Source: Actinomycetes bacterium (GTDB lineage Bacteria > Actinomycetota > Acidimicrobiia > Acidimicrobiales > Palsa-688). Taken from it: 63,714 bases of DNA. The translations under genes were made by a program, and so were the position numbers. A model generated the notes under the pieces. It was not told the origin of the DNA, ran no database searches, and saw only the letters and a program-made list of their open reading frames with translations. Shown here one piece after another: positions 23,843 to 40,975 of the stretch (position 1 is its first letter; every line of letters begins with the position of its first letter). The stretch is taken from contig JAJYMM010000097.1 of the NCBI GenBank assembly GCA_021787035.1, forward strand, positions 1 through 63,714, given 5' to 3'.

Positions 23843-23878
23843 CGAGCTGGCAAGTAGTCCGGTACGTGGGGGGCGCCC

Positions 23879-24026
23879 GCACCTCCTGCGCCAATCCCCC
23901 TGCGCAATCCCCCTGCGCAATCCTCCGGCGCCCCCAACGGCGGCCCCCTTTAGGCTCACCCCAGGTATCTTGATGGGCCCAGCTCAAATCACCGCCAGCT
24001 CAGAGCACCGCCAGCTCAGAGCACCG
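23879..24026. repeat. two short tandem arrays (about 13-14 bp x3 at 23884-23925; 16 bp x2.5 at 23984-24026)
   Basis: Direct reading of CTGCGCAATCCCCC-type units and CACCGCCAGCTCAGAG units. Confidence 0.8.
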
Positions 24027-24182
24027 CTAGTAGCCCGGTGCCCTCGTCGTAGTCGTGTGACCGCTGCCGCTACCCGAACCACCACAAGCGGCCGTCGCAG
24101 ACGCAAGGGTCGCTAGGGCCAACCCGGCCACTAGCCAGCGCCCCAGCCTCCGCAAAAGGCCACGTACCATAAAGCTCGTCAT
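24027..24182 (-). CDS. small Gly/Ser/Thr-rich lipoprotein (51 aa), not in the ORF track
   Basis: The ATG at 24182 is preceded by GAGGAG. The peptide is MTSFMVRGLLRRLGRWLVAGLALATLASATAACGGSGSGSGHTTTTRAPGY. Signal peptide plus lipobox-like AAC. Confidence 0.35.
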   Translation of the reverse strand: MTSFMVRGLLRRLGRWLVAGLALATLASATAACGGSGSGSGHTTTTRAPGY

Positions 24183-24275
24183 GATCACTCCTCGAAAACC
24201 GCCATGGCTATGACCTAAAATCTACACCGCAGACCCCAACTTGCCCAGGCAGGTGCGCCCCGGTCGAGCCCCGCC

Positions 24276-25940
24276 TCAAGTCCCAGCTAAAGGGCGGCTC
24301 TTTAGCGCTTCTGACCGTCGCAGCACCCTGCCGTCCGGCCCGATTGCTGCCACCGCAAACCACGGCCCCGTGGCATTTACCGCGATGGCCGTCTCGAACC
24401 CCGCCCAGTCTCCCCCGCCAACGGGCTGGAGCGAAGTGGGCTCCTTGCCAGCTAGGACCACCCAACGCCGCACCTCGGTCGCACCGTTCCAGCTAGCGAA
24501 AACTTGCTTGCCGTTAGCCGGGTTGTCCAGCGCAACGGCAACGGGAGGCTCCCTAGGCGTGGCGTGCCAATCCGAAGTGAACGCCCGGTACGAGTGGTAG
24601 CCAAAGGGCATCTGCCCCTCGAGCAACAGCGCTCCTCCCGGTGCGAACTCGGAGAAGTACGGCTGGTTCCCCCAGCCTACGAACACTCGGCCGTCGGCCA
24701 GCAGCTGCACGTTGCCCTGGTTGCCGCTAAGGAAGCGAGCCGGGTTTAGGTAAGCCTTACGCAGGCTTACATGCATTGCCTTGGTGTCCACACCTAGTAT
24801 GAGCCCGCGCGACTGGCGCTCCTCCGGCGGCCAGGCGCCGTCGTCGAAGACGGTGATCACGTCTGGGCCGTGAGGCCGCGCATCGTGCTGCCAGTAGAAG
24901 TGCGCGCCTCGGCCGATACTGAAATCGGATTTTTTGCCACCGAGCCGCCAAACGACCTTGCCCGTGCTACGGTCCACTTTGTACAAGGCCCATGTGCCCA
25001 GGGACGAGATCAGCAAGTCCCCGTCGGGCATCTCGGCAATAGAGTTGATGTGGAAGTAGTCGTACTCGTCGCCTGGCGGGCCGATCTTCGTGTAGCTCTC
25101 TTCGATCCCGACATGCTTCAAGCTGTCCCAATCAAAGAGCACCTTGCCAGTCGCGATGTCGATCTCCTGCGCGTGCCCGACGATGAGCTTTCCCTTGGGT
25201 TTGCCTCCAACTGAAGAAAGATCGGCCTCCACCGCCTGGTACGCGGTGACCAGCGCGGTACCTGCCGACGTGAGCTCGAGCTCGTGAAGGTCGGCCTTCA
25301 GGCCGTCACCCGCTTGGATCTGCTGGATTCCTTGGTAACTGCTGCCCACCATCTCGCCCACACCCACGCCGTAGTCATAAACCACCTGGCCCTGCCACCA
25401 GGTGAGCACCGGCTTACCTTGATAGGACTGGACTTGCAGGTCGAAGGGTTGGGGGCCCATTGGCTGGAACCAAACGGTCCGGCCGCTCCGGTCAACGAGC
25501 ATGAGCCCATGCTGGCCGTCTGTGCCCGAGAGATATGTCCGGGGAGAAAGGACGATGTAGCTGGGCGACGAGGGAGACGCGCCATGGGCCGTCACGCTCA
25601 CCTTGGGAGGGCGCAAGTCGGGGCGCGTGATGAAGGACTCGACCTGCCCGCGCATGACGAGATCCGGGCTGATCTCCGAAGGGCCGTTTTGTGGCCTAGT
25701 TGCGCGGCCCTTAGCCGGGCTCCTGGGCCATTCGTAGCCCACAACGCCACCGACGCCCGCCAATATCAGGCCTCCTGCCGCACCTGCTGCACCGAGAAGC
25801 ACCTTGCGGCGAGAAAATCTCGGCGCGCCGCCAGCTCTCGGTCCGCGATCGGCGCCCGAGTCGCCCCACTCGTCGCCGCCTGCACCAGCATCTGTCCGTG
25901 GGCTCCCGACAAGATCCCTGTACTTGCCTTCTGTTTCCAC
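24276..25940 (-). CDS. TAT-secreted arylsulfotransferase(ASST)-like beta-propeller protein, paralog 2
   Basis: TAT-like SRRKVLLGAAGAAG. Shares the family motifs YQGKPVLTWWQG, DYFHINS, WQHDA, GWGNQPYFSEF and ASWNGATEV. Confidence 0.7.
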   Translation of the reverse strand: METEGKYRDLVGSPRTDAGAGGDEWGDSGADRGPRAGGAPRFSRRKVLLGAAGAAGGLILAGVGGVVGYEWPRSPAKGRATRPQNGPSEISPDLVMRGQVESFITRPDLRPPKVSVTAHGASPSSPSYIVLSPRTYLSGTDGQHGLMLVDRSGRTVWFQPMGPQPFDLQVQSYQGKPVLTWWQGQVVYDYGVGVGEMVGSSYQGIQQIQAGDGLKADLHELELTSAGTALVTAYQAVEADLSSVGGKPKGKLIVGHAQEIDIATGKVLFDWDSLKHVGIEESYTKIGPPGDEYDYFHINSIAEMPDGDLLISSLGTWALYKVDRSTGKVVWRLGGKKSDFSIGRGAHFYWQHDARPHGPDVITVFDDGAWPPEERQSRGLILGVDTKAMHVSLRKAYLNPARFLSGNQGNVQLLADGRVFVGWGNQPYFSEFAPGGALLLEGQMPFGYHSYRAFTSDWHATPREPPVAVALDNPANGKQVFASWNGATEVRRWVVLAGKEPTSLQPVGGGDWAGFETAIAVNATGPWFAVAAIGPDGRVLRRSEALKSRPLAGT

Positions 25941-25987
25941 CTGGCATAAGCTTACTTGGCATGAACTGCGTAGCGGCGCGTGCGTTT

Positions 25988-26004
25988 ATGCCAGATCGTG
26001 GCAT
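25988..26004. promoter_or_regulatory. 17-bp perfect palindrome ATGCCAGATCGTGGCAT in the divergent promoter between ASST paralogs 2 and 3; flanking TGGCAT direct repeats at 25942 and 25956
   Basis: Direct reading. It lies in a 91-bp divergent intergenic region. Confidence 0.5.
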
Positions 26005-26031
26005 GAGTCATAGGCAGGGCGAAGACCGGTT

Positions 26032-27618
26032 GTGAGCGTCTCAGGTAACGGCCGCTCCGCCCTTTCCCGCCGAGATTTGTTCCGGCTCGCCGGCGGTGCC
26101 GCTGGAGCAGCAGGTCTGTTTGCGGCAGCGCGTTTTGCGCCCCCCATCCTCGGCGGCGACGAGCGACACCTGCCATCGCTCCCGAGCCTCGACCACGCCC
26201 CGACGCTCGAGAGCAAGGTAAATATCTCGATCAGCACCACTCCGGCAGGGCAGATCTTGCGATTCCGGAGCCGTCCCGACCTCCAACTGGCGTTGCCGCA
26301 GTTGTCCACCGAGCTTCCTGGACAGGACCCCGGCGCCATATTGACCGACACCCACGCGGGGCCAGGTGGCCAGGGGCCGCTCATCCTCGACAGTTCGGGA
26401 CGCCAACCCGTCTGGTTCAACCAGATCTCCTTAGACGCCGACCCCTCGAAGCGTGCGTTCAACCTCCGCCTTGGGCGCTACAAGGGACAGCCGGTGCTCA
26501 GCTGGTTCGAGGGGGCGGTCGTAAACGAGCACGGCGAGGGCCACTACGTCATTACAGACTCGTCCTATTCCACGGTGAAGACTGTCCAAGCCGGAAACGG
26601 TTATGTGGGCGACCTCCACGAGTTTTTCCTGACGCCGCAAGGCACTGCGTACTTCACGTGCTTCGGCTTGGGCCACGCAGACTTGCGCCCCTACGGAGGC
26701 AGCGCGAACGGCGATTTCTACTACGGGGTAGCGCAAGAGGTCGAGGTGGACACCGGCAAGGTCCTTTTCCAGTGGAGGAGCGACCAGCACGTCAGCTTCG
26801 ACGACTCGTACTGCACGCCAAAACAATACGGCACGGAACCCTGGGACTATTTCCACATAAATGCTATTTCGCAAGACGGCAATGGTGACCTCCTTATTTG
26901 TTCTCGCAATACCTCGACGATATACAAGGTCAGCCGTTCCACGGGTGAGATAATTTACCGGATCGGTGGCAAGCGGAGCGACTTTTCTTTTGCCCCGGGC
27001 GCTCAATTTGCGTGGCAGCACGACGCAACGGCGCAGCCCGACGGGACGATAACGGTCTTCGACAACGGCGCCGGCGTCGAGGTTACCCAACCCGAGTCCC
27101 GAGCCCTCGTGCTCAACCTAAATATGTCGTCTAAGACCGTCGAGCTGTTCCACCAGTACCCACACCCCGGCGGGGCGATCTTGGCCAATGCCCTCGGCAG
27201 CGTCCAATTGCTGGAGGGTGGCCACACGTTCATCGGTTGGGGCAACCGCGGATGGTTCAGCGAAGTCGGGCCGACAGGACAGACCCTCCTAAACGGGCGC
27301 CTTGCAGGCGATACCACGCTGTCGTACCGCGCGTTCCGTTCGCCGTGGACAGCCAAGCCGCCCGAACCACCGGACATCGCCGTAGAGGCCGCGAGCCAGA
27401 CCACGACCGTGTACGCGAGCTGGAACGGCGCCACAGAGGTGGACCGCTGGGCGGTACTCGGCGGCGCGGCCAAAAACAGCCTTTCGGTCCTCGGGGTTGC
27501 ACCCAAGGCAGGGTTCGAGACACAGATAACCGTGCCAGGACGGCCGGCTCACGTCGCCATAGCGGCCCTGGACGCCGCCAGCAACGAGCTCGGCCGCTCC
27601 GGGACCCTGAAGACCTAG
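26032..27618 (+). CDS. TAT-secreted arylsulfotransferase(ASST)-like beta-propeller protein, paralog 3
   Basis: Twin-arginine signal SRRDLFRLAGGAAGAAG and the same motif set (GPLILD..PVWF, YKGQPVLSWFEG, DYFHINAIS, WQHDA, GWGNRGWFSE, ASWNGATEV). Confidence 0.7.
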   Translation: MSVSGNGRSALSRRDLFRLAGGAAGAAGLFAAARFAPPILGGDERHLPSLPSLDHAPTLESKVNISISTTPAGQILRFRSRPDLQLALPQLSTELPGQDPGAILTDTHAGPGGQGPLILDSSGRQPVWFNQISLDADPSKRAFNLRLGRYKGQPVLSWFEGAVVNEHGEGHYVITDSSYSTVKTVQAGNGYVGDLHEFFLTPQGTAYFTCFGLGHADLRPYGGSANGDFYYGVAQEVEVDTGKVLFQWRSDQHVSFDDSYCTPKQYGTEPWDYFHINAISQDGNGDLLICSRNTSTIYKVSRSTGEIIYRIGGKRSDFSFAPGAQFAWQHDATAQPDGTITVFDNGAGVEVTQPESRALVLNLNMSSKTVELFHQYPHPGGAILANALGSVQLLEGGHTFIGWGNRGWFSEVGPTGQTLLNGRLAGDTTLSYRAFRSPWTAKPPEPPDIAVEAASQTTTVYASWNGATEVDRWAVLGGAAKNSLSVLGVAPKAGFETQITVPGRPAHVAIAALDAASNELGRSGTLKT

Positions 27619-28973
27619 GCCCCAGACGGCCGGCGGCGCAAGCCGATCAGGTACATGCCGTCTGTCCCCGCCGACTGAGGTAGGAGCAACGCCCCTGGCC
27701 CGAGGGGCTCCCACGGTGGCCCAGGCGGCGGCAGTATCTCCCATCCGGGAACTAGCCGGGCTGCGAGCCACTGCCCGACGCCTGAGGTTTCTTCCTTCGT
27801 GAGAGTGCAAACGCTGTAAGCGATCAGCCCACCGGGCGCGACGAGGGGGACCGCCGCGGCGAGGAGCCGCCTCTGGAGACCTGCCAAGCGGGCAACGTCC
27901 TCAGGGCGCACCCGCCAGCGGGCGTCCGGGCGGCGCCGGAGGACGCCCAAGCCGCTGCAGGGAGCATCGACCAGGACCGCGCCGAAGCTGCCCGGGCGGA
28001 ACGGGGGTGCAGCGCCGTCTGCTACGACCGGGCCCAGGTTGGAGAGCCCGAGGCGTGCCGCGTTTGCCGCCACCACACGGGACCGCGCCGCCGAGAGGTC
28101 GCCGGCGACGACGAAGGGTGCGTGGGCCGCCAGAAGGGTGGCCTTGCCGCCCGGAGCAGCGCACATGTCGAAAACTGAGCGGCCTCTCCCGCACCCTGTC
28201 GCTCCCCCGGGTGCGGTGCCAACGCGCTCGTCCGCCCAGCGCGCGACCTGCTCCCCGACGGCTTGGCTTCCGGGGTCCTGGACGTAGCCGTCGTCCCTCT
28301 TCGACACGACGGCGGCCTCGTCCATTTTTGCGAGCGCAGCCAGGGCTCGTTCACGCCCGAGGTCGGCTGACAAGCGCCGTAGTACCCAGTCGGGATAACT
28401 GAGGCGGGTTCCCGCATCGGGCCACTGGACTGGGCCAGCCGCGACGAGCTCGCCTACCCGGCGGAGCACGGCGTTTAGGAGCGGCCGGGCGCGCCTCGGA
28501 CAAAGGTCGACCGCTTCGGAGACGGCGGCGTAAGGCGGGACCCGCATGAAGGCGAGCTGGTAACAACCCGTACGGGCAGCAGCACGCACAATTGGTTCGA
28601 GCTCGCCACGGGCGAACCTCGCTATAAGCCAGTCACACGCGCGCTGCATCCGGACAGCGCCGTAAACGAGCTCGGTGGCGAAGGAGCGGTCCCGTTCGTC
28701 GAGCGACGAAGCGGCGAGCAGGCGGGGCAGGATCTCGTTCGCGCGCTCGCCGGCGTCAACGGCCACGAGAGCCGCGACGGCTAGCCCCCTGGCCGTGCCG
28801 GCAAGCCGAACATCGAGCTCGGCCCCCCGGTACTGGGAACCGCCGCGCTGGGAACCACCGCGCTGGGAACCGCCGCGCTGGGAACCGCCGCGCTGGGAAC
28901 CGCCGCGCTGGGAACCGCCGCGCTGGGGGATTTTTCGTTCGGGGCCGGTTGGCTGCGCGGCGATCTCTCTCAC
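27615..28973 (-). CDS. rsmB: 16S rRNA (cytosine967-C5)-methyltransferase RsmB/Sun
   Basis: NusB-like N-terminal domain plus a methyltransferase core (FDMCAAPGGKAT...VLVDAPCSG...AYSVCT). A GTG start at 28973 forms a GTGA overlap with the fmt stop. ORF 27615..29018 extends further upstream. Confidence 0.85.
   Translation of the reverse strand: MREIAAQPTGPERKIPQRGGSQRGGSQRGGSQRGGSQRGGSQRGGSQYRGAELDVRLAGTARGLAVAALVAVDAGERANEILPRLLAASSLDERDRSFATELVYGAVRMQRACDWLIARFARGELEPIVRAAARTGCYQLAFMRVPPYAAVSEAVDLCPRRARPLLNAVLRRVGELVAAGPVQWPDAGTRLSYPDWVLRRLSADLGRERALAALAKMDEAAVVSKRDDGYVQDPGSQAVGEQVARWADERVGTAPGGATGCGRGRSVFDMCAAPGGKATLLAAHAPFVVAGDLSAARSRVVAANAARLGLSNLGPVVADGAAPPFRPGSFGAVLVDAPCSGLGVLRRRPDARWRVRPEDVARLAGLQRRLLAAAVPLVAPGGLIAYSVCTLTKEETSGVGQWLAARLVPGWEILPPPGPPWEPLGPGALLLPQSAGTDGMYLIGLRRRPSGA
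28833..28927. repeat. 15-bp tandem repeat x6 (CTGGGAACCGCCGCG) in the rsmB N-terminus
   Basis: Direct reading. It encodes the in-frame sequence (QRGGS)6. Confidence 0.9.
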
Positions 28974-29941
28974 GCCCCGAGACGTTCCCCGGGCACGGGC
29001 CGCGTGCCTCGCAGCCAATCGGGCACCGCCAGCGGTGCCTTTCCTTCGGGCTGCACGACCAACAGCTGCAGCGTACCGGCACCCGTCCCCACCAGGTCAC
29101 CCGCGAGCTCGCCAGGCTCAAGGGCAATTGCAGGAGCTCCAGCGCCCGGGGTTGAGCCGGCGCGTATTGAGCCGGCGCGTATTGAGCCGGCGGGCACGGG
29201 GGTTTCTGCTTGGCAGCGGCCGCCATCCGCGCCCGAGTCATGGTCCACCAGCCGGGCCCGATGGACGATCAGGCGCCGGCCCCGCCAAGTGGTCCATGCC
29301 CTGCCAACCCTCACGGCGCGGAGGCAAACCTCCGCCGGCAGCTCAAAGTCCAGCCGGAGCTCCGAAGGATCGACCTTGTTGGCATAACTAGGCTCGCCAA
29401 CTTGGGCCACGGGCTCTGGAAAACCTTGGCTGAGGGCGCCAAGCAGCATCTCGGTCCCCAGGTCACCGAGGCGACCACGCAGCTCCGTCACCGTTTCCTC
29501 GGGCCCTATGCTTACGGCCCGACAGGCAAAAATAGGGCCGGTGTCCAAGCCCTCTTCCAGCTTCATCAAGCAAACACCGGTCTCTTTGTCGCCGGCCAGC
29601 ACAGCCCTCTCCACCGGTGCCGCACCCCGCCAGCGCGGCAGGAGGGAGAAGTGGACATTGACCATCGGCACCTTCTCGAGCACGTCCGGCTTGATGATGC
29701 GCCCGTAGGCAACGACCACCCCAAGCTCGGCGCCCGAACCCACCACCGCGGCCGCATCGTAGGAGACGGGAAGGCCGAGCTCGGCCGCCACGACCTTCAC
29801 TGGGCTCGGCCCAAGCTCCCCTCCTCGGCCCCGGCGTGCGTCCCGCCTGGTCACCACCACGCGAACATCGTGGCCCGCGCCAACTATCGACCGAAGTGTC
29901 GCGGCCGCGACCGTAGGGGTGCCTAGGAAGGCGAGGTGCAA
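28970..29941 (-). CDS. fmt: methionyl-tRNA formyltransferase
   Basis: Motifs FLGTP...HFSLLPRWRGAAP...GVCLMKLEEGLDTGPI. Confidence 0.9.
   Translation of the reverse strand: MHLAFLGTPTVAAATLRSIVGAGHDVRVVVTRRDARRGRGGELGPSPVKVVAAELGLPVSYDAAAVVGSGAELGVVVAYGRIIKPDVLEKVPMVNVHFSLLPRWRGAAPVERAVLAGDKETGVCLMKLEEGLDTGPIFACRAVSIGPEETVTELRGRLGDLGTEMLLGALSQGFPEPVAQVGEPSYANKVDPSELRLDFELPAEVCLRAVRVGRAWTTWRGRRLIVHRARLVDHDSGADGGRCQAETPVPAGSIRAGSIRAGSTPGAGAPAIALEPGELAGDLVGTGAGTLQLLVVQPEGKAPLAVPDWLRGTRPVPGERLGA
29152..29195. repeat. 15-bp tandem repeat x~3 (TTGAGCCGGCGCGTA) inside the fmt C-terminal region
   Basis: Direct reading. It encodes the in-frame sequence AGSIRAGSIRAGS. Confidence 0.85.
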
Positions 29942-30598: not shown

Positions 30599-31459
30599 CT
30601 ACGCGGCCGCGGCCGGCTGGACTACGAAACTCCCTTCCATGCCTTCTTGGGCATGGCCGGGGACGGGACAGAAGTAGCTGTAGGTGCCCGCCGACGACGC
30701 TGTGAAGCTGAGCATCCCGGCGTGCATCCCGGCAGAGGTCTTCTCACCCAGGAACCAAAGGGCAGCCCCGGGGAAGGCCGGCCGCGCAGTCATCATCGGC
30801 ATCCAAGAACTGCCGGCACCCCGGGCCGACAGGACTAAGCCGTGGGCCATGTCGTCGTCGGCGTTCACCAGCTCGATAGAAACATGCGCTCCTTCCGCCA
30901 CGACGACCGTCGGGTCCGTCAACCGGGCGATCTTGAAGTTCTCGGCCGGCATCGACGGGCTCGCCAGCACGGCGAAAGAGACGTCCTGGCCCGAGAAGGT
31001 TACGGTGTTGGTGGAGCGGTCCACAGTTGCGCCCGAGGGTACCTCCGCGCCCAACTGGGCCGCTTGGGCGGGGCTCACGCGAGGTCCGGGGGCGCCGGCG
31101 AAGAGCCTGCCCATGACCTTGCCCATGTTGTCGCTGCCTTGCGTGAACGAACCAGGAAGAGAACCGCCCATCATCCAGCCCGGCGCGCCACTGCCGCCCA
31201 TCATCCAGGAGTAGCCGCTGGCGCCCATCATCCAGGAGTAGCCGCCCCCCATCATCCCCCCGTACCCTGCGCTCTGCTGGGGGGCGTACCGCTTGGCGAC
31301 GGCGAGGTAATAGGCATAACTGGCCTTGGCGCTCGCCGGTGTCAACGTCTGGGCGGGGGCGCCCGGGCCGCCCGAGAGGCCGATGCCGAGGCCAGCCCCG
31401 AGGCCGCCGGCAGCCAATACGAGAGCTGTAGCGAGGACCGTCAGTTGCTTGCGGTTCAT
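30599..31459 (-). CDS. secreted cupredoxin (type-1 copper, azurin-like C-x4-H-x4-M site) with a Met-rich MMGG region
   Basis: Signal peptide from MNRKQLTVLATALVLAAGG, with an SD before the ATG at 31459. Four (G/W)MMGG motifs are present. The C-terminal YFCPVPGHAQEGMEG is a copper site. ORF 30599..31600. Confidence 0.7.
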   Translation of the reverse strand: MNRKQLTVLATALVLAAGGLGAGLGIGLSGGPGAPAQTLTPASAKASYAYYLAVAKRYAPQQSAGYGGMMGGGYSWMMGASGYSWMMGGSGAPGWMMGGSLPGSFTQGSDNMGKVMGRLFAGAPGPRVSPAQAAQLGAEVPSGATVDRSTNTVTFSGQDVSFAVLASPSMPAENFKIARLTDPTVVVAEGAHVSIELVNADDDMAHGLVLSARGAGSSWMPMMTARPAFPGAALWFLGEKTSAGMHAGMLSFTASSAGTYSYFCPVPGHAQEGMEGSFVVQPAAAA

Positions 31460-31708
31460 GGTGAATGTCCCCTTTCTTTGTTCAGGTTCAGGCGGGCCGT
31501 TCCCTGGCGAGCGCCACGGCAGAGCCGGCCGGCGCGGCCTGCGGCTTGCTTTGCACAGTTCCCACCTTGCCGCTCCCCTGCAGGTGGGGGGCAGGGCCAT
31601 CGGGCCCTTGGGGCCGTGACCTATGGCCCTACCCCCTAGGGGTACCCTGACGCCATCCTGAACCTGAAGCGCCCGGGTTTCACTGGGCGCACATGGAGGT
31701 GGTCAGAC

Positions 31709-31987
31709 ATGATGTTCTGGTACGGGAGCGGCTGGGGCTGGTGGCAGGGCGTGCTCAGCGTCGTGTTCATGCTCGCTTTTTGGGGCCTGGTCGCCTGGGG
31801 GATCTACGCCCTCGCGAGGAGCTCCCGAGGGCCAGCCCCGCGGGCCAGCACCTATGACGCCCTCATGATTTTGGACGAGCGCCTAGCACGGGGAGAGATC
31901 GACCAGGAGCAGTACCGGGCCGCACGCGAGCTGATCAGGACAGGTGGCGGGGCCGGCCCGACGGCACCGACGGGAGGCGCGTGGTGA
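31709..31987 (+). CDS. SHOCT-domain membrane protein
   Basis: Trp-rich TM segments followed by ILDERLARGEIDQEQYRAARELI, a SHOCT motif. Confidence 0.6.
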   Translation: MMFWYGSGWGWWQGVLSVVFMLAFWGLVAWGIYALARSSRGPAPRASTYDALMILDERLARGEIDQEQYRAARELIRTGGGAGPTAPTGGAW

Positions 31988-32364
31988 CGCCGGCCAGCCT
32001 GCCCGAGACCGGGCTTGGCGAGAGCGCTTGCGCTCGCGAAGCCCCGCCGGCAACGGGGAGCCCCGGGCGGGCCCTGCACCCTGTCAGGGGCTACACCTCG
32101 GACAAAGGCGACTACTTGAGCCGGCTCAAAAAGATCGAGGGCCAGGTACGCGGCCTGCAACGGATGATCGAGGCCGACAAGTGGTGCCCAGACATCGTGA
32201 CCCAGGTCGCCTCGGCCACCCGCGCCCTCCAGGAGGTGGCGGTCGTGCTCCTGTCCGAGCACCTCCGCCACTGCGTGCTCGGGGCCGCCCGCTCCGAAGA
32301 TGGTAAGCCGGAGGTGCTCCTGGACGAGGTCGCGGGCACGATCCGCCAGGTGGTCCGGCTCTAG
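31981..32364 (+). CDS. csoR: CsoR/RcnR-family metal-sensing repressor
   Basis: Motifs RLKKIEGQVRGLQRMIEADKWCPDI...LLSEHLRHC, a Cys/His/Cys metal site. The true start is probably downstream of 31981. Confidence 0.75.
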   Translation: MVTPASLPETGLGESACAREAPPATGSPGRALHPVRGYTSDKGDYLSRLKKIEGQVRGLQRMIEADKWCPDIVTQVASATRALQEVAVVLLSEHLRHCVLGAARSEDGKPEVLLDEVAGTIRQVVRL

Positions 32365-32385
32365 GGCCTGCTCAGGCTGGATCCC

Positions 32386-33120
32386 GTGGACGACGTCGAG
32401 CTCAACAAGAGGGCCGTGGTGGTAGACGACGACCCCTCGGTCCAGGCGGTCGTGCGCGCCTACCTCGAGCGCGACGGCTTCTTGGTCTACGTGGCGGCCA
32501 ACGGGGCCGAGGGCCTCGCCACCGCCGAGCGGGTAAAGCCGGCACTGATAGTGCTCGACCTGATGCTCCCGGACCGCCCCGGCGAGGACGTCGCCCGCGA
32601 GATCAGGGCCCGTTCGGACGTGCCGATCATCATGCTCACGGCCAAGGCAGCCGAGGACGACCGGGTCGGTGGGCTTGGCCTTGGCGCTGACGACTACTTG
32701 ACAAAGCCATTCAGCCCCCGCGAGCTGGCCGCCCGTGCCCGGGCCGTGCTCCGCCGCGCTCGGAGCAGCGACGTCCCCCTGGTCGAGGTGCTCCGCTTCG
32801 ACGACGGGGCACTGGAGGTCGACACGGTCAGCCACGAGGTGCGCGTCAAAGGCCGACCGGTCGAGCTCACCCGGGCGGAGTACCGCCTGCTCACCACCCT
32901 CGCGCGCTACCCGGGGAGGGTGTACACCCGGGCCGAGCTCGTCCACCACATAGCGGGCTACGACTACGAGGGCTACGAGCGCACGATGGACGCCCATGTG
33001 AAGAACCTCCGCAAGAAGATCGAGCCCGACCCCCGCCACCCACGCTACATAGAGACCGTCTTCGGCACCGGCTACCGACTGGCGCGATCGCTGGCCGCGA
33101 CTTCCCCTTCAAAGAGATGA
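32386..33120 (+). CDS. OmpR-family response regulator (CopR/CusR-like)
   Basis: REC domain plus a winged helix. Confidence 0.8.
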   Translation: MDDVELNKRAVVVDDDPSVQAVVRAYLERDGFLVYVAANGAEGLATAERVKPALIVLDLMLPDRPGEDVAREIRARSDVPIIMLTAKAAEDDRVGGLGLGADDYLTKPFSPRELAARARAVLRRARSSDVPLVEVLRFDDGALEVDTVSHEVRVKGRPVELTRAEYRLLTTLARYPGRVYTRAELVHHIAGYDYEGYERTMDAHVKNLRKKIEPDPRHPRYIETVFGTGYRLARSLAATSPSKR

Positions 33121-34457
33121 GCACGAGGCAGCTGGGCCTAAGGGCGCGGCTGGCCGTTGCCCTGGTCGCCGTGGCCGTGGCGGCCGTGGGGCTCGCCGCC
33201 TTCATCGGCAACATGGGCCTCAGCTCACGCCTGGAGCAAGCCGCACGGGCGCGGCTCTCGACCGAAGCGCAGCACGTAGCCGGCGTCGCCGCCGCCGTGT
33301 ACGAGGGCGCGGGGGCCTGGACGGGAGACGCCCGCACCGAGCTCACGCACCTCGCCGCCCTGGACGGCCTCCGCCTGTCGTTGCTCCTGCCCCACGGGCG
33401 AGTGCTGCCGGCTGGCCCGGCCCCCGCAGGACGGGTAGCCGGTGCCCCCGTCCTCCTCCACGGGCGCCGCCTGGCCACCGTGTCGGTCTCCTACGAGAAC
33501 GGGGCGCTCCTCTCCAATGAAGACCGGCAACTTGAAGCTTCGCTCGACCGGCTCCACCTGGTGGCGGCGGCGGTGGCGGCGTTCGCTGCGCTCGTCGTCG
33601 GGTTAGTGCTCGCCGAAGCCCTCTCGAGGCCGCTCCGGCGTATCCGGGCCACGGCCGAACAGCTCGAGCGCGGTGACCTAGAGGCGCGCGTCGAGGCCGG
33701 CGGCGAGCCCGAGGTCCGCGCCGTCGGCCGGGCCTTGAACCGGCTGGCCGAGACCCTCAGCCACGAGGAGGACCTGCGCAGGGAAAGCGTGGCCGACCTC
33801 GCCCACGAACTGCGCACACCGGTCAACGGCTTGTTGTCCCGCATCGAGGCCGCGCAGGACGGGCTCCTGCCCCATCCGGAGAACCTTGCCGCCATGCACG
33901 GCGAGGCCACCCGCCTGACGCGGCTCTTGGACGACCTCTCCCGACTCGCCGATGCCGAGCGGCCCGGCCTCCTCCTCGACAAGGCTCCCGTCAACCTGGC
34001 CGAGGTCGCAGAGGCTGTTGGCCAAGCCTTCGCCGCCCGGTTCACCAAGGCGGGCATTGCCTTCAGCTCGGGCTGCACGGCAGCCTGGGCCCTCGGGGAC
34101 CCCGGGCGCCTGGAGCAAGTTGTCGCAAACTTGCTGTCCAATTCGCTCGCCTATACGGAGCCGGGCGGGAAGGTCTCGCTCACGGCGGCGCGCAACGGCC
34201 GGGAGGCCTTCGTGGAGGTGGCCGACACCGGTGTCGGGATCGACCCCGAAGACCTGAGCCATATATACACCCGCTTTTGGCGCGGCGACCGCTCACGGTC
34301 GAGGACCACCGGCGGGAGCGGCATCGGCCTCGCCATAGTGAGAGAGCTGGTCCGCGCCCATGAGGGCCGCATCGATGTGGAGAGCGCCCCCGGACGGGGC
34401 TCCCGCTTCAAGGTGGTGCTGCCGGCGCTCGGACGAGAGCCACTAGCCCGCCTGTAG
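33117..34457 (+). CDS. sensor histidine kinase (CopS/CusS-like)
   Basis: Two TMs, HAMP, HisKA (LAHELRTPVNGL) and HATPase_c. It overlaps the response regulator by 4 bp. Confidence 0.8.
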   Translation: MSTRQLGLRARLAVALVAVAVAAVGLAAFIGNMGLSSRLEQAARARLSTEAQHVAGVAAAVYEGAGAWTGDARTELTHLAALDGLRLSLLLPHGRVLPAGPAPAGRVAGAPVLLHGRRLATVSVSYENGALLSNEDRQLEASLDRLHLVAAAVAAFAALVVGLVLAEALSRPLRRIRATAEQLERGDLEARVEAGGEPEVRAVGRALNRLAETLSHEEDLRRESVADLAHELRTPVNGLLSRIEAAQDGLLPHPENLAAMHGEATRLTRLLDDLSRLADAERPGLLLDKAPVNLAEVAEAVGQAFAARFTKAGIAFSSGCTAAWALGDPGRLEQVVANLLSNSLAYTEPGGKVSLTAARNGREAFVEVADTGVGIDPEDLSHIYTRFWRGDRSRSRTTGGSGIGLAIVRELVRAHEGRIDVESAPGRGSRFKVVLPALGREPLARL

Positions 34458-34671
34458 TTGGGGCTCAGGCGCCCGGCGGCCCGGCGCCCAATTTACGATT
34501 AATTGGCTTCGCGGCCACAAAGGAAGGCAACCGGCACTGGCAACAGCGGCCCACCAACCCCGCTGTGTATCGAACAGGCAGGGCTGGCGGTCGGAGATCC
34601 TTTTTTCGGAGCCGTGAGCCCGCTCCGAACGAGGGTCGTTGGCCGCCCTCCAAGGTCCATGAAAACCGCAG

Positions 34672-34783
34672 GGCTTCATGAGATCTTCGCAACCGGGGCC
34701 AAAGCTCGCCGCCCCACCCTGCGCCGGCGCCGCTGTAGCTCGTCGGCTTCATGAGATCTTCGCAACCGGGGCCAAAGCTCGCG
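34672..34783. promoter_or_regulatory. two direct copies of a 39-bp element (CTTCATGAGATCTTCGCAACCGGGGCCAAAGCTCGC) 73 bp apart, upstream of the ICMT-like gene
   Basis: Direct reading. A third, degenerate copy (CTTCACGAGATCTTCGCACGGGCAGCC) lies at 35536-35569, upstream of the next gene. Confidence 0.5.
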
Positions 34784-34785
34784 CT

Positions 34786-35718
34786 ATGGCCGACTACGCG
34801 TACGGGCTATGGGGGCTCGTCATCTTCGACTCGGTGCTCACGATCGCTTTCGCCGCGAGCTTCTTCTGGCCCCGTTCCAAGCACGACTGGCGCGCGTTCG
34901 GAGGCTTCTCCGGCTTCATCGTGGCGCTCTTCACCGAGATGTACGGTTACCCGCTCACCGTCTACCTTTTGGCCGGTCCGCTCGCCGGGGTCGTCCCGGG
35001 GGTGAACTTCTCCCACGGCGGCGGCCACCTGTGGAACGACGTGGTCGGCTGGAAGGGGGACCCTCACCTGAGCCCGTTCCACGTCGCCAGCTACCTGGTG
35101 ATCGTCGCCGGCTTCTCGCTCGTCTACGCCGCCTGGAGGGTGCTCTACGTGGCCAAGAAACGCGGCGAGCTCGCCACGGCCGGCCCCTACGCCTACGTCC
35201 GCCACCCCCAGTACCTCGGCTTCATCTTGGTAATGGCGGGCTTCTTGCTGCAATGGCCGACCTTTGTGACGCTCGCCATGTTCCCGGTCCTGCTCGTCGT
35301 GTACCGCCGGCTGGCAGCCCGGGAAGAAAGCGATGTGAGGGCCGAGTTCAAAGAGGCCTTCGACGCGTGGGCGACGACTACGCCCCCGTTTTGGCCCCAC
35401 TGGCGGTCGCTCAGGCACGCGGGAACCCCCGCTTGGCTCCTCGGGCCGCGCCTCGCCCTGGCCCGGCTCGGCACGCTCACCAACAAGACGACGACCCCAG
35501 CCGCCTTTTCTGCCCGCCACGAAGCAAGCAGGAGCCCTTCACGAGATCTTCGCACGGGCAGCCGACACTCTGGTCATGGGCGAAAGGAGCCACAAGTGTT
35601 GCGCAGCCCCATGGAGCGAAGCAGCGGTGCTGGTGCGCCTGGCCAGGCCCGCGAAGTCCCGGTCCGGGTCAAGGGTGGCCACGGCCCCGCCGTGGCCCCT
35701 CTGAGGGCCGAGCCATGA
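34786..35718 (+). CDS. ICMT/PEMT-family membrane methyltransferase with a long low-complexity C-terminal tail
   Basis: Motif YVRHPQYLGFILVMAGFLLQ and an ...EE...F..W motif in 5-6 TMs. The core is ~200 aa. The remaining ~100 codons may be tail or a frameshift. Confidence 0.6.
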   Translation: MADYAYGLWGLVIFDSVLTIAFAASFFWPRSKHDWRAFGGFSGFIVALFTEMYGYPLTVYLLAGPLAGVVPGVNFSHGGGHLWNDVVGWKGDPHLSPFHVASYLVIVAGFSLVYAAWRVLYVAKKRGELATAGPYAYVRHPQYLGFILVMAGFLLQWPTFVTLAMFPVLLVVYRRLAAREESDVRAEFKEAFDAWATTTPPFWPHWRSLRHAGTPAWLLGPRLALARLGTLTNKTTTPAAFSARHEASRSPSRDLRTGSRHSGHGRKEPQVLRSPMERSSGAGAPGQAREVPVRVKGGHGPAVAPLRAEP

Positions 35719-36074
35719 GCGCCGAGGCCGGCACCGGCCCGAGCCCGGTCTGGCCCGAGGGCGAAGGTGCGCCGCCCGACGAGTGGCCCGCTTCGGCACT
35801 TGGCCCACTTGCAGGTCCCCACGCCCGAGGTCGTACTGACCACCAGGCGCCAGCCCCCGAGGGCCACTCGGCCACCGGGCGGCACAGCCACGGCTGGATG
35901 ATGATCGCCTGCTGCATCCCGATGATCGCGATAGCTGTCGCCCTCGTAGCCACCGGGGTGGCGGGGGCGGGGTTCATCCTGGTCGCCCTGGCCTGCACGG
36001 CGATGATGGCCGCCATGCACCTGGGCATGGGCCACGGCAGCCACCGGGACGGGCATGGCCCGGGCGGGAGCTGA
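35716..36074 (+). CDS. small His/Met/Cys-rich 2-TM membrane protein
   Basis: ATG at 35716. Sequence HGWMMIACCIPMIAIAV...MMAAMHLGMGHGSHRDGHGPGG suggests metal binding. Confidence 0.45.
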
Positions 36075-36185
36075 GCCGTGCGCCGGAGCAACCCCGTATG
36101 CCAGGAGGCGTCTCTGCCTCACCAACCCGCTCGACAGCGCCGGGCAGGACGCCTAGAGAAGGCCTAGCAGGAAGACGCGGGCAAA

Positions 36186-37301
36186 ATGCCACAACTATTG
36201 ACGGGCACGACGGTGATCGCCGCCTTTTTCGCCGGTGTGGTGGCGCTTTTCGCGCCTTGCTGCATCTCTGTGATGTTGCCCGCCTATCTCGCCACCGGGG
36301 TGCAGCGCCGGAGCGGCCTCGTGGCGATGACGTTCGTCTTCGCAGCTGGTGTGGCGACGGTCATCCTGCCGATCGCCTTCGGCGTCACCGCCCTCAGCCG
36401 TTTGATAAACGAGTACCACCCGATCGTGTACACCGTCATGGCCGTCGTCATGGCCGCCCTGGGGACCTTCATGCTGCTCGGACATCGTGTCTCCATGCCG
36501 ATGCCCGGGTTCCGGGCGCGACAGGGCCAAGGCGCGGGGCGCGCTTACGTGCTCGGTGTCTTCTCGGGAGTGGCCACGGCATGCTGCGCGCCCGTGCTGG
36601 CCGGCGCTATCGTCCTGGCCGGCGCCAGTGCCAACTTCGTCACCTCCCTCGGGGTGGGCGCGGCCTACGTCTTCGGGATGGTGGCGCCGCTATTTGTCGT
36701 CGCGCTGGCCTGGGACGGGCGCAAGCTCGGCCAGGCCCGCTGGTTGCGAGCCAAGGCGGTAAAGCTCTCGATCTTCGGCCGGGCCCGCTACGTCCCTGTG
36801 ACAAACCTGGCGGGGGGCCTGCTGCTCGTCGCCATAGCAGTCATTACCGGTATAACCGCAGTCACCGGGCCGGCCAGCCCCACCAGCGGCTGGCAGCTGC
36901 GGATGGCCACCACCCTCCAACACACGGCCCATGTCCTCACGACGGGTGCCGGCCACGTCCCCGGCTGGGTGACGGCGCTAGGCCTCTTAGCCGTGCTCGC
37001 CTTGCTGGCCCGCATGGCCGTGCACCAAGCCGCGGCTCGCGCGCCCAGGGGACCAGAAGCAGACGAGAGGGCAGAAGCAGACGAGAGGGCAGAAGCAGAC
37101 GAGAGGGCAGAAGCAGACGAGAGGGCAGAAGCAGACGAGAGGGCAGAAGCAGACGAGAGGGCAGAAGCAGACGCCGAGCCCCCAGCCGGAGCCGCACCTC
37201 ATCGGGTCGCAGGCCACGGCTGCTGTGCCCACGATGCTGCCACGACCGGCAGCGCTGTGCTCACCTCCGCTCCTACCGCCACGCCCGTCTCGCGTTCATA
37301 A
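36186..37301 (+). CDS. CcdA/DsbD_2-family transmembrane thiol-disulfide transporter with a C-terminal (AEADER)6 tail
   Basis: TM1 reads FAPCCISVMLP and TM4 reads ACCAPVLAG. The C-terminal tail carries HGCCAHD. Confidence 0.7.
   Translation: MPQLLTGTTVIAAFFAGVVALFAPCCISVMLPAYLATGVQRRSGLVAMTFVFAAGVATVILPIAFGVTALSRLINEYHPIVYTVMAVVMAALGTFMLLGHRVSMPMPGFRARQGQGAGRAYVLGVFSGVATACCAPVLAGAIVLAGASANFVTSLGVGAAYVFGMVAPLFVVALAWDGRKLGQARWLRAKAVKLSIFGRARYVPVTNLAGGLLLVAIAVITGITAVTGPASPTSGWQLRMATTLQHTAHVLTTGAGHVPGWVTALGLLAVLALLARMAVHQAAARAPRGPEADERAEADERAEADERAEADERAEADERAEADERAEADAEPPAGAAPHRVAGHGCCAHDAATTGSAVLTSAPTATPVSRS
37062..37175. repeat. 18-bp tandem repeat x6 (GCAGAAGCAGACGAGAGG)
   Basis: Direct reading. 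It encodes the in-frame sequence (AEADER)6. Confidence 0.9.
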
Positions 37302-37313
37302 GGAGGACGACCG

Positions 37314-38060
37314 ATGACCACAAGAGTCCCGACCCGCCCCAGGCCCGGCGCGCCCAAGGTGCCCCGCCCTACGCGTCCGAGCGAAGGGCGACCGGCGGGG
37401 GGCAGCAACTCCGCCCGCCGCCGAGCCGCGCAGGCCCGCGTCGCGCGCCAACGAAAGATCTGGGCGACCGGCGCGGTTGCTGTGCTGGCGGCCGTGGTCG
37501 GCCTCTACGTTGCTACCAACGGCGGAGCGAAAAAGGGCACGGGCTCGTACCCCTACGCGGTCGGCCAGCCCGGACCGGGACAAAAGGCACCTGACTTCAC
37601 CCTGGCGTCCACGACAGGAGGTAGCTGGAGCCTCGCCGCCCAAAAGGGCAAGACCGTACTTCTTTTCTTCCAAGAAGGCGTTGACTGCGAGCCGTGCTGG
37701 ACACAGATAAAGGACATGGAGTCCGACTGGAGGAGCTTCCGGGCTCTCGGCATAAACGAGATGGTCAGCATAACCACAGACCCGCTCTATGCCCTCAAGC
37801 AAAAGGTGGCAGACGAAGGCATAACCACCCCCCTCCTAGCCGACCCGAACGTGTCGGTATCCAACGCGTACGGCATGACTTCTTACGCGATGGCAGGGAT
37901 GGCCAACCAGGACGGGCACAGTTTTGTGGTCGTCGGCCCCAACGGGCTGATCAAATGGCGGGCCGACTACGGCGGGGCGCCAGATTACACGATGTATGTC
38001 CCGGACTCAGATCTGGTCGCTCAGATGAAGGCTGGCGGCACCGGGGGCACGGCGTTGTGA
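37314..38060 (+). CDS. membrane-anchored TlpA/ResA-like thioredoxin-fold redoxin
   Basis: Motifs KAPDFTL...GKTVLLFFQEGVDCEPCW. Arg/Pro-rich N-terminus followed by a TM. Confidence 0.75.
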   Translation: MTTRVPTRPRPGAPKVPRPTRPSEGRPAGGSNSARRRAAQARVARQRKIWATGAVAVLAAVVGLYVATNGGAKKGTGSYPYAVGQPGPGQKAPDFTLASTTGGSWSLAAQKGKTVLLFFQEGVDCEPCWTQIKDMESDWRSFRALGINEMVSITTDPLYALKQKVADEGITTPLLADPNVSVSNAYGMTSYAMAGMANQDGHSFVVVGPNGLIKWRADYGGAPDYTMYVPDSDLVAQMKAGGTGGTAL

Positions 38061-38326
38061 CAATTCAGGTCACCGTGCTCAGCGCGCCACATTGCGAGCT
38101 GTGCGAGCACGCGAAAAAGGTGCTCGCAGAGGTATCAGCCGATTACGACATCGAGATCTCGGTCATCTCCGACGAAAGCGAGGAGGGCCGCGCCCTCATG
38201 ATGGAGCACATGGTCGCTTTCCCACCCGGCGTGCTGCTCGACGGCAACCTCTTTTCCTTCGGCAGGCTCTCGGAGCGCAGGCTCCGCCGGCAACTGGAGC
38301 ACTCCGGCGCCTCCAGGTCCCCCTGA
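38057..38326 (+). CDS. glutaredoxin-like / thioredoxin-family small protein (CxxC)
   Basis: GTG start in a GTGA overlap with the tlpA stop. Sequence VTVLSAPHCELCEHAK. It is 89 aa. Confidence 0.55.
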   Translation: MTIQVTVLSAPHCELCEHAKKVLAEVSADYDIEISVISDESEEGRALMMEHMVAFPPGVLLDGNLFSFGRLSERRLRRQLEHSGASRSP

Positions 38327-38499
38327 AAGGCGCTCGAGGTGGAGCCAAGGCGGGGGGGCTGGCCCCTGCCAGGGGTTCGGACGAGGACGAGGGCCAAGCG
38401 CCGCCTGTTGACGGAGCGCCAGAGCCGGCCTGCCGACCTGGTCGTGGTCTCAATTTGGCGTTGCCGGTGCCGAAGGGGCCCCAACGCACGAGTAGGATC

Positions 38500-40927: not shown

Positions 40928-40975
40928 GTGGCACCACGAAGGGTGGCCCCACGAAGGGTGGCCCCACGGAGGTCA
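40928..40975. repeat. 15-bp tandem repeat x~3 (ACGAAGGGTGGCCCC)
   Basis: Direct reading; intergenic. Confidence 0.85.

Follow-up and report, generated by a model that had tools for sequence, protein, structure and literature searches.

A mosaic, apparently mobile copper-stress island with probable two-tier control in an uncultured member of the Actinomycetota

A stretch of 63,714 nt from an uncultured member of the Actinomycetota (the window) carries, at positions 30599-38326, an island of ~7.7 kb that encodes a cupredoxin, a SHOCT-domain membrane protein, the repressor CsoR, a response regulator with its sensor histidine kinase, an ICMT-like membrane methyltransferase, a small two-helix membrane protein, a CcdA-related membrane protein, a redoxin and a Grx-like protein. 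The island is a mosaic, apparently mobile variant of known copper envelope-redox systems, and we consider it probable that it acts as a copper-stress module with two tiers of control, CsoR providing the first and the two-component system the second. This reading starts from what was observed, namely the gene content, the conserved ligands, two cis-elements with their conservation in related loci, and the recurrent linkage of the island's genes to copper genes. An earlier note, made from the letters of this DNA, had proposed a copper-responsive envelope thiol-redox module under CsoR and a two-component system, and both cis-elements and the copper linkage now support that proposal.

A predicted copZA-type operator upstream of SHOCT-csoR

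The csoR gene (31984-32364, plus strand) encodes a Cu(I)-sensing repressor of 126 residues, which matched Pfam PF02583 Trns_repr_metal (DUF156) with 86.7 bits against a cutoff of 22.8, and NCBIfam RicR with 90.8 bits, under the cutoff of 175 for that family. Its closest solved structure was CsoR of Streptomyces lividans (4ADZ, E 5e-23), with which it shares the Cys-His-Cys triad for Cu(I) (C-x24-H-x3-C; WCPDI...SEHLRHCV in the window and YCIDI...EEHLRHCV in S. lividans), and as the Cys...His-x3-Cys ligands are kept we take the window protein to be a copper sensor rather than a persulfide sensor. The start of csoR is overlapped by the gene for the SHOCT-domain membrane protein (31709-31987, plus strand; 92 residues; Pfam SHOCT, 29.5 bits).

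A search for a CsoR box upstream of SHOCT and csoR had been suggested earlier, and such a box was found. The intergenic region of 249 bp between the SHOCT gene and the divergent cupredoxin gene contains TACCCCCTAGGGGTA (31630-31644), a predicted operator in the form of a G/C-tract pseudopalindrome, TAC-N9-GTA, upstream of csoR's own operon, with the start codon of SHOCT 65 bp away on one side and that of the cupredoxin 171 bp away on the other. The pattern TACCCC-N3-GGGGTA was matched only here in the 63.7 kb, with 0.00 matches expected from shuffles. TACCCCCTAGGGGTA equals the 15-bp core shared by two S. lividans operators, copZA1 and copZA2, for which CsoR binding has been measured (PMC3902906), and is similar to the RicR site of Mycobacterium tuberculosis, TACCCCGCTGGGTA (PMC3944814). 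Across the loci fetched for comparison (~1.4 Mb) the pattern was matched 25 times, with 18 matches outside the window and six near-identical contigs (~0.2 expected by chance, as a rough estimate from base composition), and those in related loci were mostly placed directly upstream of SHOCT-csoR, csoR, copA or YgaP/small-protein genes. Control of the SHOCT-csoR-regulator-kinase operon by CsoR is thus a well-supported prediction, and control of the divergent cupredoxin would be only plausible. A cupredoxin 55% identical to that of the window is divergent from SHOCT-csoR across such a box in L071, a metagenome-assembled genome (MAG) labelled Dormibacterota.

Direct repeats as candidate sites of the response regulator

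The next two genes on the plus strand encode an OmpR/PhoB-type response regulator (32386-33120; 244 residues; Pfam Response_reg and Trans_reg_C) and the sensor histidine kinase (33117-34457; 446 residues; HAMP, HisKA and HATPase_c). Upstream of the methyltransferase gene lies a perfect tandem duplication of 73 bp (34672-34817, plus strand), each copy of which carries CTTCATGAGATCTTCG (34674-34689 and 34747-34762), the second ending 24 bp before the methyltransferase start codon. A third candidate box, CTTCACGAGATCTTCG (35537-35552, plus strand), stands 44 bp upstream of a remnant open reading frame (ORF) and 162 bp upstream of the small-protein start codon, and in L012, a related locus described below, the same box stands 44 bp upstream of a Cupredoxin_1::YgaP-transmembrane (TM) gene. 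These three boxes, which precede the methyltransferase gene and the small-protein/CcdA/redoxin/Grx operon, are the three matches to CTTCR-N6-CTTCR (CTTCAYGAGATCTTCG) in the 63.7 kb, where 0.48 were expected, and all fall in the island.

In 82 related loci the pattern gave 54 matches compared with 8 in a reversed-sequence control and 7-12 at neighbouring periods that are not multiples of three; periods of 9, 12 and 15 gave inflated counts, which we attribute to codon periodicity. Nearly half of the matches (24/54) were situated less than 300 bp upstream of module genes in the same orientation, the genes so preceded being SHOCT, YgaP/small protein, small Cupredoxin_1, the Grx-CcdA-redoxin operon and the two-component genes themselves, and a box was also found upstream of the ICMT gene in L058 and L078. 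The CopR site of Corynebacterium glutamicum, TGAAGATTTgaTGAAGATTT, has been defined by electrophoretic mobility-shift assay and mutagenesis (PMC3140484), and the window box is its reverse complement in the CTTCA half-site core and the 11-bp period, with different flanking bases. On a Corynebacterium plasmid (L175), where TlpA-CcdA lies beside CopRS, a CopR-type box (TGAAGATTT-nn-TGAAGATTT, 11-bp period) was found at the expected position. For a small ORF that has been proposed to lie between cg3286 and copR, translation of L175 at the estimated position ran into stop codons. We take the direct repeats as candidate binding sites of the island's response regulator, whose regulon would comprise two promoters, the first driving the ICMT-like gene and the second the genes of the small protein, CcdA variant, redoxin and Grx-like protein.

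The response regulator was 49% identical to one beside DUF2933-CcdA-redoxin-Grx on a Rubrobacter plasmid, and a plasmid search with the kinase matched only the generic catalytic core. Kinases beside these modules fell into two classes by sensor region. In the short-loop class, represented by loci titled Nocardioides, Marmoricola, Aeromicrobium and others, there is a His-containing loop of the CopS type (GPxxFxxH...). The window kinase belongs to the other, class A, with an extracytoplasmic domain of ~120 residues that is common to the kinases of L012, L058, L059, L066, L080, L085, L086 and L088; it could not be aligned with the CopS loop of C. glutamicum. The description of the system as CopRS-like therefore fits the candidate DNA motif, whereas the kinase, with a sensor unlike the CopS loop, falls outside it.

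A probable DUF2933 relative and a methyltransferase that recur in copper loci

The small membrane protein (35715-36074, plus strand; 119 residues) starts in an ATGA overlap with the stop of the ICMT ORF and has MMIACCIPM in TM1, ALACTAMMAAM in TM2 and His-rich tails at both ends. Its family holds at least 354 homologues of about 75-120 residues, in which CC-x-PM of TM1 and C-x2-MM-x2-M of TM2 are invariant (C66, C67, P69, M70, C94, M97, M98 and M101). No significant Pfam or NCBIfam match was obtained for the protein, which scored 16.1 bits (E 0.012) against DUF2933 (PF11666) with a cutoff of 21; alignment of the family profile with ICMT-adjacent DUF2933 proteins by hhalign gave a probability of 95.4% (E 1.8e-8), and this profile-profile match makes it a probable actinobacterial DUF2933 relative. 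Some homologues bear a precomputed PF26265 label that was not returned by the local Pfam search.

Neighbours were counted by tblastn around a small-protein homologue in 80 genomes. A YgaP-like TM gene was found within 1 kb in 64 of these loci, immediately upstream wherever listed; within 10 kb there was a P-type ATPase in 45, a SHOCT gene in 31 and a two-component system in 21. CsoR was present in 25, the CcdA variant with the redoxin in 14 (12 of them with the Grx-like gene too) and ICMT in 11. Among the 36 loci flanked by at least 5 kb on each side, 30 had a P-type ATPase or CsoR, and the locus genes are associated with copper to an extent far exceeding chance. The ICMT-like and His/Met-rich genes, which had been described as unusual companions in a copper locus, proved instead to recur in others, and the pair beside copA and a cupredoxin has already been published (PMC8478169).

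The methyltransferase gene (34786-35718, plus strand, with 34786 the most likely start) encodes a conserved core of ~205 residues that matched Pfam ICMT with 32 bits and PEMT with 31.4 bits. Its C-terminal half matched Ma-ICMT (4A2N, E 7.6e-8) with the S-adenosylmethionine-binding region intact, the binding motif RHPxYxG ... EE..L...FG..Y..Y being conserved in 10 homologues, and in the homologue alignment the N-terminal half (FTEMYGYPLTVYLL, GHLW..GW.GDPH.SPFH) was specific to this subfamily. Identity to the window protein was 61% for the homologue of Streptomyces sp. NBC_00377 and 35% for that of a Burkholderia plasmid. The Streptomyces locus has csoR-copA divergent from SHOCT, YgaP-TM, the small protein, an 86-residue protein, ICMT, more genes and a final cupredoxin, and L149 repeats the layout of the window, with csoR, SHOCT, kinase and regulator, then ICMT, CcdA, redoxin and Grx. 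Most of the ICMT-anchored metagenome contigs of at least 6 kb carried a P-type ATPase, CsoR or CueR, and ten ICMT-anchored contigs had a DUF2933 gene directly upstream.

Alteromonas and other marine bacteria possess a 'core' cluster of merR, copA, cupredoxin, DUF2933 and ICMT (PMC8478169), and the CzcN/NccN proteins of Cupriavidus metal-resistance clusters are, like the product of the window gene, ICMT homologues (PMC7563307, PMC3056050); in these three papers no function is assigned to DUF2933, ICMT or CzcN/NccN. Judged by its invariant membrane Cys and Met residues, the DUF2933-type protein is most plausibly a membrane Cu(I) binder. It is speculation that the methyltransferase has as its substrate some membrane component that binds copper, for instance the phosphatidylethanolamine amine.

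Two further observations concern these small membrane proteins and their neighbours. The YgaP-like TM proteins have a conserved cysteine motif of the GHCPLY type. In L010, an Acidimicrobiales MAG (8747-8998 and 17547-17849), the CcdA variant is preceded by a one-helix Cys/Met/His protein of another kind, followed by a coiled coil, and a second DUF2933-like gene lies 7 kb away; a place for a small membrane protein rich in thiols and thioethers is thus retained even where its family is exchanged.

A four-cysteine CcdA variant with two thioredoxin-fold partners

The CcdA/DsbD_TM-family membrane protein (36186-37301, plus strand; 371 residues) scored 27.0-28.3 bits against Pfam DsbD_TM, for which the cutoff is 27.1, and the only solved structure matched by its family profile was Thermus thermophilus CcdA (5VKV, E 2e-8). 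Cys25-Cys26 (FAPCC, TM1) and Cys133-Cys134 (ATACCAP, TM4) were invariant across 70 homologues with identities as low as 46%. In both pairs the leading Cys aligned with the redox Cys of canonical CcdA, and the Cys that follows it stands where canonical CcdA has a hydrophobic residue. Beyond what CcdA has, there were also a further hairpin, a helix added at the C-terminal end and a variable acidic (EADERA)n tail, which by the positive-inside rule is predicted to be cytoplasmic and which often has a further CC motif (GHGCCAHD at its end in the window). On these alignments, the protein is a distinct, derived four-cysteine subfamily of CcdA homologues. The tail repeat is encoded by a perfect 18-nt tandem repeat (37054-37173, 6.7 copies), the number of which is polymorphic among near-identical contigs, giving products of 353 or 371 residues.

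The redoxin (37314-38060, plus strand; 248 residues) is TlpA/ResA-like and extracytoplasmic, with an N-terminal membrane anchor and a CEPC motif, as in Bacillus subtilis ResA, and matched AhpC-TSA with 81.5 bits, Redoxin with 58 bits and NCBIfam ResA with 44 bits. Its stop codon is overlapped by the start of the Grx/Trx-like gene (38057-38326, plus strand; 89 residues; CELC; Thioredoxin_3, 28.6 bits; Glrx-like, 28.2 bits), the product of which has no signal peptide that could be read from its sequence and is presumably cytoplasmic.

The CcdA-variant, redoxin and Grx-like genes travel together, in either order, across phyla, and the redoxin was present in all 14 census loci that contain the CcdA variant. 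A conjugative plasmid of Burkholderia contaminans has, in order, cueR, two small genes, DUF2933, the CcdA variant, the redoxin, a thioredoxin, ICMT, a peroxiredoxin and a P-type ATPase; its CcdA variant was 45% identical to that of the window and had FAPCC and SSCCAP, and its redoxin had CQPC. The Rubrobacter plasmid has regulator, kinase, a hypothetical gene, DUF2933, CcdA, redoxin and Grx, with an ICMT gene nearby. The full set of effectors is thus retained from phylum to phylum, whatever copper regulator is in use in the host. In L010 a separate canonical DsbD_TM gene was found besides the CcdA variant.

A MerT-like identity of the CcdA variant was considered and set aside; a 31%-identical CcdA on a Rhodococcus plasmid adjoins a thioredoxin and not mer genes. 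A literature search for a link between MerH and CcdA gave nothing useful.

The cupredoxin

The cupredoxin gene was refined to 30599-31459 on the minus strand, shorter than the full ORF, which reaches 31600, and its product of 286 residues is a secreted or membrane-anchored blue-copper protein with an N-terminal hydrophobic anchor, a Met-rich region of (W/G)MMGG repeats, encoded by a 27-nt repeat at 31187-31257, and a rusticyanin-like domain. This domain matched the rusticyanin family TIGR03095 with 84.7 bits, under the equivalog cutoff of 146.7, and the rusticyanin structure 1CUR with E 3e-12, all of the His/Cys/His/Met type-1 copper ligands being aligned. CopI of Rubrivivax gelatinosus is likewise a secreted cupredoxin with a Met-rich segment, in its case a His/Met-rich region, in a copper-regulated locus; unlike CopI, the window cupredoxin has a domain closest to rusticyanin, and orthology with CopI was rejected on a score of 17 bits (E 0.0028) against NCBIfam CopI, far under the cutoff of 280.

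The Met-rich repeat fused to the window cupredoxin is echoed by a small secreted MMGG-rich protein (SMMGGSMMGGHMKGGAMMQGCPMMG) encoded just upstream of DUF2933 and the CcdA variant on the B. contaminans plasmid (L093, 7158-7472), as one of the two small genes that follow cueR. The Cupredoxin_1 domain was met in three forms, as stand-alone small genes, as a fusion with YgaP-TM (L012, 9249-10004) and at the N-terminus of a copper ATPase (Streptomyces L007, 4364-7186).

Mosaic structure of the island

Comparison by blastn with L012, a MAG of a different organism, showed that segment 31554-38391 is common to both at 92-94% nucleotide identity, with unrelated flanks: L012 has a SecDF-like gene upstream and lacks the cupredoxin, def and glyA. 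Within the common segment the window has 945 extra bases (34478-35422), with the duplicated box and the ICMT gene, and has lost 623 bases that in L012 code for the Cupredoxin_1::YgaP-TM fusion, recognised by Pfam on L012. What is left of this fusion is an in-frame remnant of 40 codons (35596-35718), which forms the last 123 bases of the ICMT ORF and still ends in the ATGA overlap. L058 and L078 have a fuller order, with kinase, box, ICMT, box, Cupredoxin_1, then a YgaP-TM match (in L058) and the small protein. The box-bearing promoters thus look like joints where cassettes are gained or lost, and the island as a whole is, from these comparisons, apparently horizontally mobile and mosaic. The 73-bp duplication is itself polymorphic, L001 and L005 having one copy and the other contigs two, and its copy number could alter promoter strength within the population.

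A 10-bp direct repeat, AGAGCCGGCC, is present at 31521-31530 and 38421-38430, ~24-30 bp beyond either end of the segment common to the window and L012, and may be due to chance (~0.03 by a rough estimate) or be a trace of insertion.

Proposed mechanism and alternative explanations

The order of regulation, the signal of the kinase, which way the relay runs and what it carries, and what the small protein and the methyltransferase do are our proposals. In the first tier, cytoplasmic Cu(I) would bind CsoR, which would leave TACCCCCTAGGGGTA and derepress SHOCT-csoR-regulator-kinase and perhaps the divergent cupredoxin. In the second, the newly made kinase would sense extracytoplasmic copper, or envelope damage inflicted by copper, and phosphorylate the CopR-type regulator, which would bind the CTTCR-N6-CTTCR repeats and activate the two promoters, for the ICMT-like gene and for the small-protein/CcdA/redoxin/Grx operon. 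Outside the membrane, the Met-rich blue-copper protein would bind and possibly oxidise Cu(I), as is thought for CopI. A thiol relay would run outwards from the cytoplasmic Grx-like protein through the four-cysteine CcdA variant to the anchored CEPC redoxin, and the reducing power so exported would undo copper-catalysed cysteine oxidation in exported proteins. The DUF2933-type two-helix protein, with its Cys/Met cluster in the bilayer, would likely bind Cu(I) in the membrane, and the ICMT/PEMT-type methyltransferase would act on some membrane substrate.

Several points weigh against this proposal. The response regulator was 46% identical to the Corynebacterium CopR-type regulator and also 46% identical to an unrelated MtrA-like regulator in the same window (17006-17662), so that identity is uninformative on CopR orthology. 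The class A sensor domain has no conserved Cys or Met and does not resemble known copper-sensing kinases. Control of the cupredoxin by CsoR is made uncertain by the 171 bp that separate gene and operator and by the absence of the cupredoxin from the stretch that the window and L012 have in common. The window encodes neither a copper-exporting ATPase nor CopZ nor a multicopper oxidase, so the island cannot bring about resistance by efflux and does not suffice by itself as a resistance determinant. For the CcdA variant the AlphaFold model was only moderate (pLDDT 69), and a pure electron relay explains neither the doubled cysteines of this protein nor its CC tail and dedicated cytoplasmic partner.

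These last features bear on an alternative that we regard as possible, if rather unlikely, in which the trio would relay a thiophilic metal, Cu(I) or else Hg(II)/Ag(I), by ligand exchange instead of electrons. The metal would pass from the outside CxxC to a four-thiolate site made up of both membrane Cys-Cys pairs, the cytoplasmic CC tail and the cytoplasmic CxxC protein, with the DUF2933-type protein as a further Cu(I) station. MerP-MerT-NmerA moves Hg(II) by such ligand exchange, and vicinal cysteines in a membrane helix are a hallmark of the mercury transporters MerT, MerC and MerF. The second Cys of each pair, invariant in the 70 homologues, replaces a hydrophobic residue; many homologues have a further CC or SCC motif in a cytoplasmic tail that is otherwise variable; the small proteins encoded alongside have many membrane Cys, Met and His residues; and the operon encodes its own cytoplasmic CxxC partner, where ordinary CcdA systems use the general thioredoxin. 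The family is, however, clearly related to CcdA and retains both redox cysteines, and its outside partner is an oxidoreductase of the ResA/TlpA type, not a ferredoxin-fold metal binder such as MerP or CopZ. Import of copper would be harmful, the island has neither a cytoplasmic sink nor an ATPase, and there is ample documentation of reducing pathways induced by copper. The geometry of thioredoxin-CcdA-ResA/TlpA pathways, together with the documented copper-induced versions of these, leads us to favour the outward electron relay, with the doubled cysteines, CC tail and dedicated partner still pointing to a possible Mer-like Cu(I) relay. A bolder extension, to which we give a somewhat smaller chance still, would make the five effectors (DUF2933-type, CcdA variant, redoxin, Grx-like and ICMT-like) one copper machine common to several phyla, in which the CcdA fold has been turned into a Cu(I) thiolate relay, a counterpart of the Mer chain, and the methyltransferase makes a membrane component (e.g. 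the phosphatidylethanolamine amine) bind less copper.

It is improbable that the island answers mainly reactive sulfur species or general thiol-oxidative stress, with a CstR-like persulfide sensor in place of CsoR and with redoxins and YgaP/rhodanese-related genes handling sulfur. CsoR-family proteins of Streptomyces and Staphylococcus do sense persulfide and bind similar ATACC-N6-GGTAT sites, rhodanese-associated YgaP-like TM domains precede the small protein in 64 of the 80 loci, and the Rubrobacter locus includes a sulfurtransferase gene. Yet the window repressor has the full Cu(I) triad and S. lividans CsoR as its best match, its operator is that of copZA and not the persulfide-sensor consensus, P-type ATPases, cupredoxins, CueR and CopC/D predominate in the neighbourhoods, and no persulfide dioxygenase or sqr gene was found in the ~10 kb annotated on each side of the kinase gene. 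Least probable of all is that CcdA and the ResA-like protein serve ordinary cytochrome c maturation (System II) and merely adjoin copper regulators, as their source annotation ('cytochrome c biogenesis protein CcdA') and the ResA-like CEPC motif and NCBIfam score would have it, since the same ~10 kb on each side and the island contain no ResB/CcsB or ResC/CcsA, the subfamily has cysteines and a helix beyond those of CcdA as well as an acidic tail, its companions, on plasmids included, are CsoR, CueR, DUF2933, ICMT and copper ATPase genes, and L010 holds its canonical DsbD_TM gene separately.

Relation to known copper systems

The copper-stress module proposed here shares with the S. lividans CsoR regulon (csoR, copZA1, copZA2) the Cu(I) triad and the operator core; unlike there, csoR is in an operon with SHOCT and a two-component system, and no copZA is present in the window. 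The C. glutamicum CopRS regulon (cg3281-cg3289), in which tlpA is induced 235-fold by copper (PMC3140484), also has an OmpR-type regulator and kinase adjoining copper genes, besides the half-site core and period of the box. That regulon includes a TlpA-like redoxin, and L175 a CcdA too, and the island has both; it differs from C. glutamicum in the 120-residue kinase sensor in place of a short His-containing loop and in the lack of a multicopper oxidase, CueP and CopB in the window, and from C. glutamicum and L175 in that its CcdA is the four-cysteine variant with its own cytoplasmic Grx-like partner. As in the cluster of Alteromonas and marine Gammaproteobacteria (PMC8478169), cupredoxin, DUF2933-type and ICMT genes are found together, but under CsoR and a two-component system instead of a MerR/CueR-type regulator and without copA, and the small protein has an extra CCxPM in TM1 and the cupredoxin is rusticyanin-like with a Met-rich extension.

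Two proteobacterial systems call for comparison with the redox trio. Salmonella ScsABCD, a DsbD-family reductase with thioredoxin-fold partners, is needed for copper tolerance. The resemblance to Scs that had been noted for the trio is an analogy only: the anchored AhpC/TSA-Redoxin protein with CEPC is a ScsD-like feature, but the CcdA variant consists of membrane helices and tail with no further Pfam domain, lacking the periplasmic domains of DsbD and ScsB, and neither ScsC (DsbA/DsbG-like) nor ScsA was found in the island or among gene calls for ~10 kb on each side of the kinase gene. In Pseudomonas aeruginosa, dsbDEG driven by DsbRS is needed for copper tolerance (bioRxiv 10.1101/2020.08.17.255257), and the combination of a copper-linked two-component system, a DsbD-family reductase and thioredoxin-fold partners is that of the window. 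There is no DsbG here, the window box differs from the DsbR box TAA-N7-TTAAT, and, unlike in P. aeruginosa and Salmonella, the organism is of the Gram-positive type and the membrane component has vicinal cysteine pairs.

Copper-induced thiol repair in the envelope is known from a few Proteobacteria and Corynebacterium, and this locus and its relatives represent a different, widespread and largely unannotated version. Its CsoR operator and CopR-type direct repeat together define a testable regulon across Actinomycetota, and three families of unassigned function, DUF2933-type, ICMT/CzcN-type and four-cysteine CcdA, are tied firmly to copper. The tight pairing with DUF2933 narrows the search for the role of CzcN/NccN-type methyltransferases in metal resistance. 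Cultured carriers are available in Streptomyces sp. NBC_00377, Rubrobacter tropicus SCSIO 52909 and, for plasmids such as NZ_CP090638, Burkholderia contaminans.

Gene calls and genomic setting

All ten genes were verified on their strands by an ORF check of the window, identical calls were made on six independent, near-identical metagenome/MAG contigs (L001-L006), and Pfam and NCBIfam searches agreed with every family call and position in the earlier note. The single co-directional run of 6.6 kb described there is correct as to strand, but gaps of 328 bp between kinase and ICMT genes and of 111 bp between small-protein and CcdA genes divide it into at least two, probably three, transcription units. 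Housekeeping genes flank the island, with def-fmt-rsmB on the left and glyA on the right. The GC content of the window is about 67-72%, and in a scan of the window that of the island was no different from its flanks. No tRNA genes that might mark the island and no P-type ATPase homologue were found anywhere in the window; a sigma-70 promoter scan found nothing in this high-GC DNA, and terminator-like matches were at chance level only.

Elsewhere in the window, a second two-component system, MtrAB-like by similarity, was found at 17006-19095. Directly left of rsmB, and unrelated to the copper island, are three arylsulfotransferase-domain genes (~23100-27600; L001 1-4487), one product of which, of ~1,020 residues, also had matches to MFS transporters. 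In-frame tandem repeats of 15 nt occur in or near the flanking housekeeping genes, at 28833-28927, 29152-29192 and 40928-40972. Their products are (GGSQR)n near the N-terminus of RsmB, (AGSIR)n in a long ORF overlapping the end of fmt, and a (VGPPF)-type repeat near 40.9 kb, and this genome seems prone to short coding repeats.

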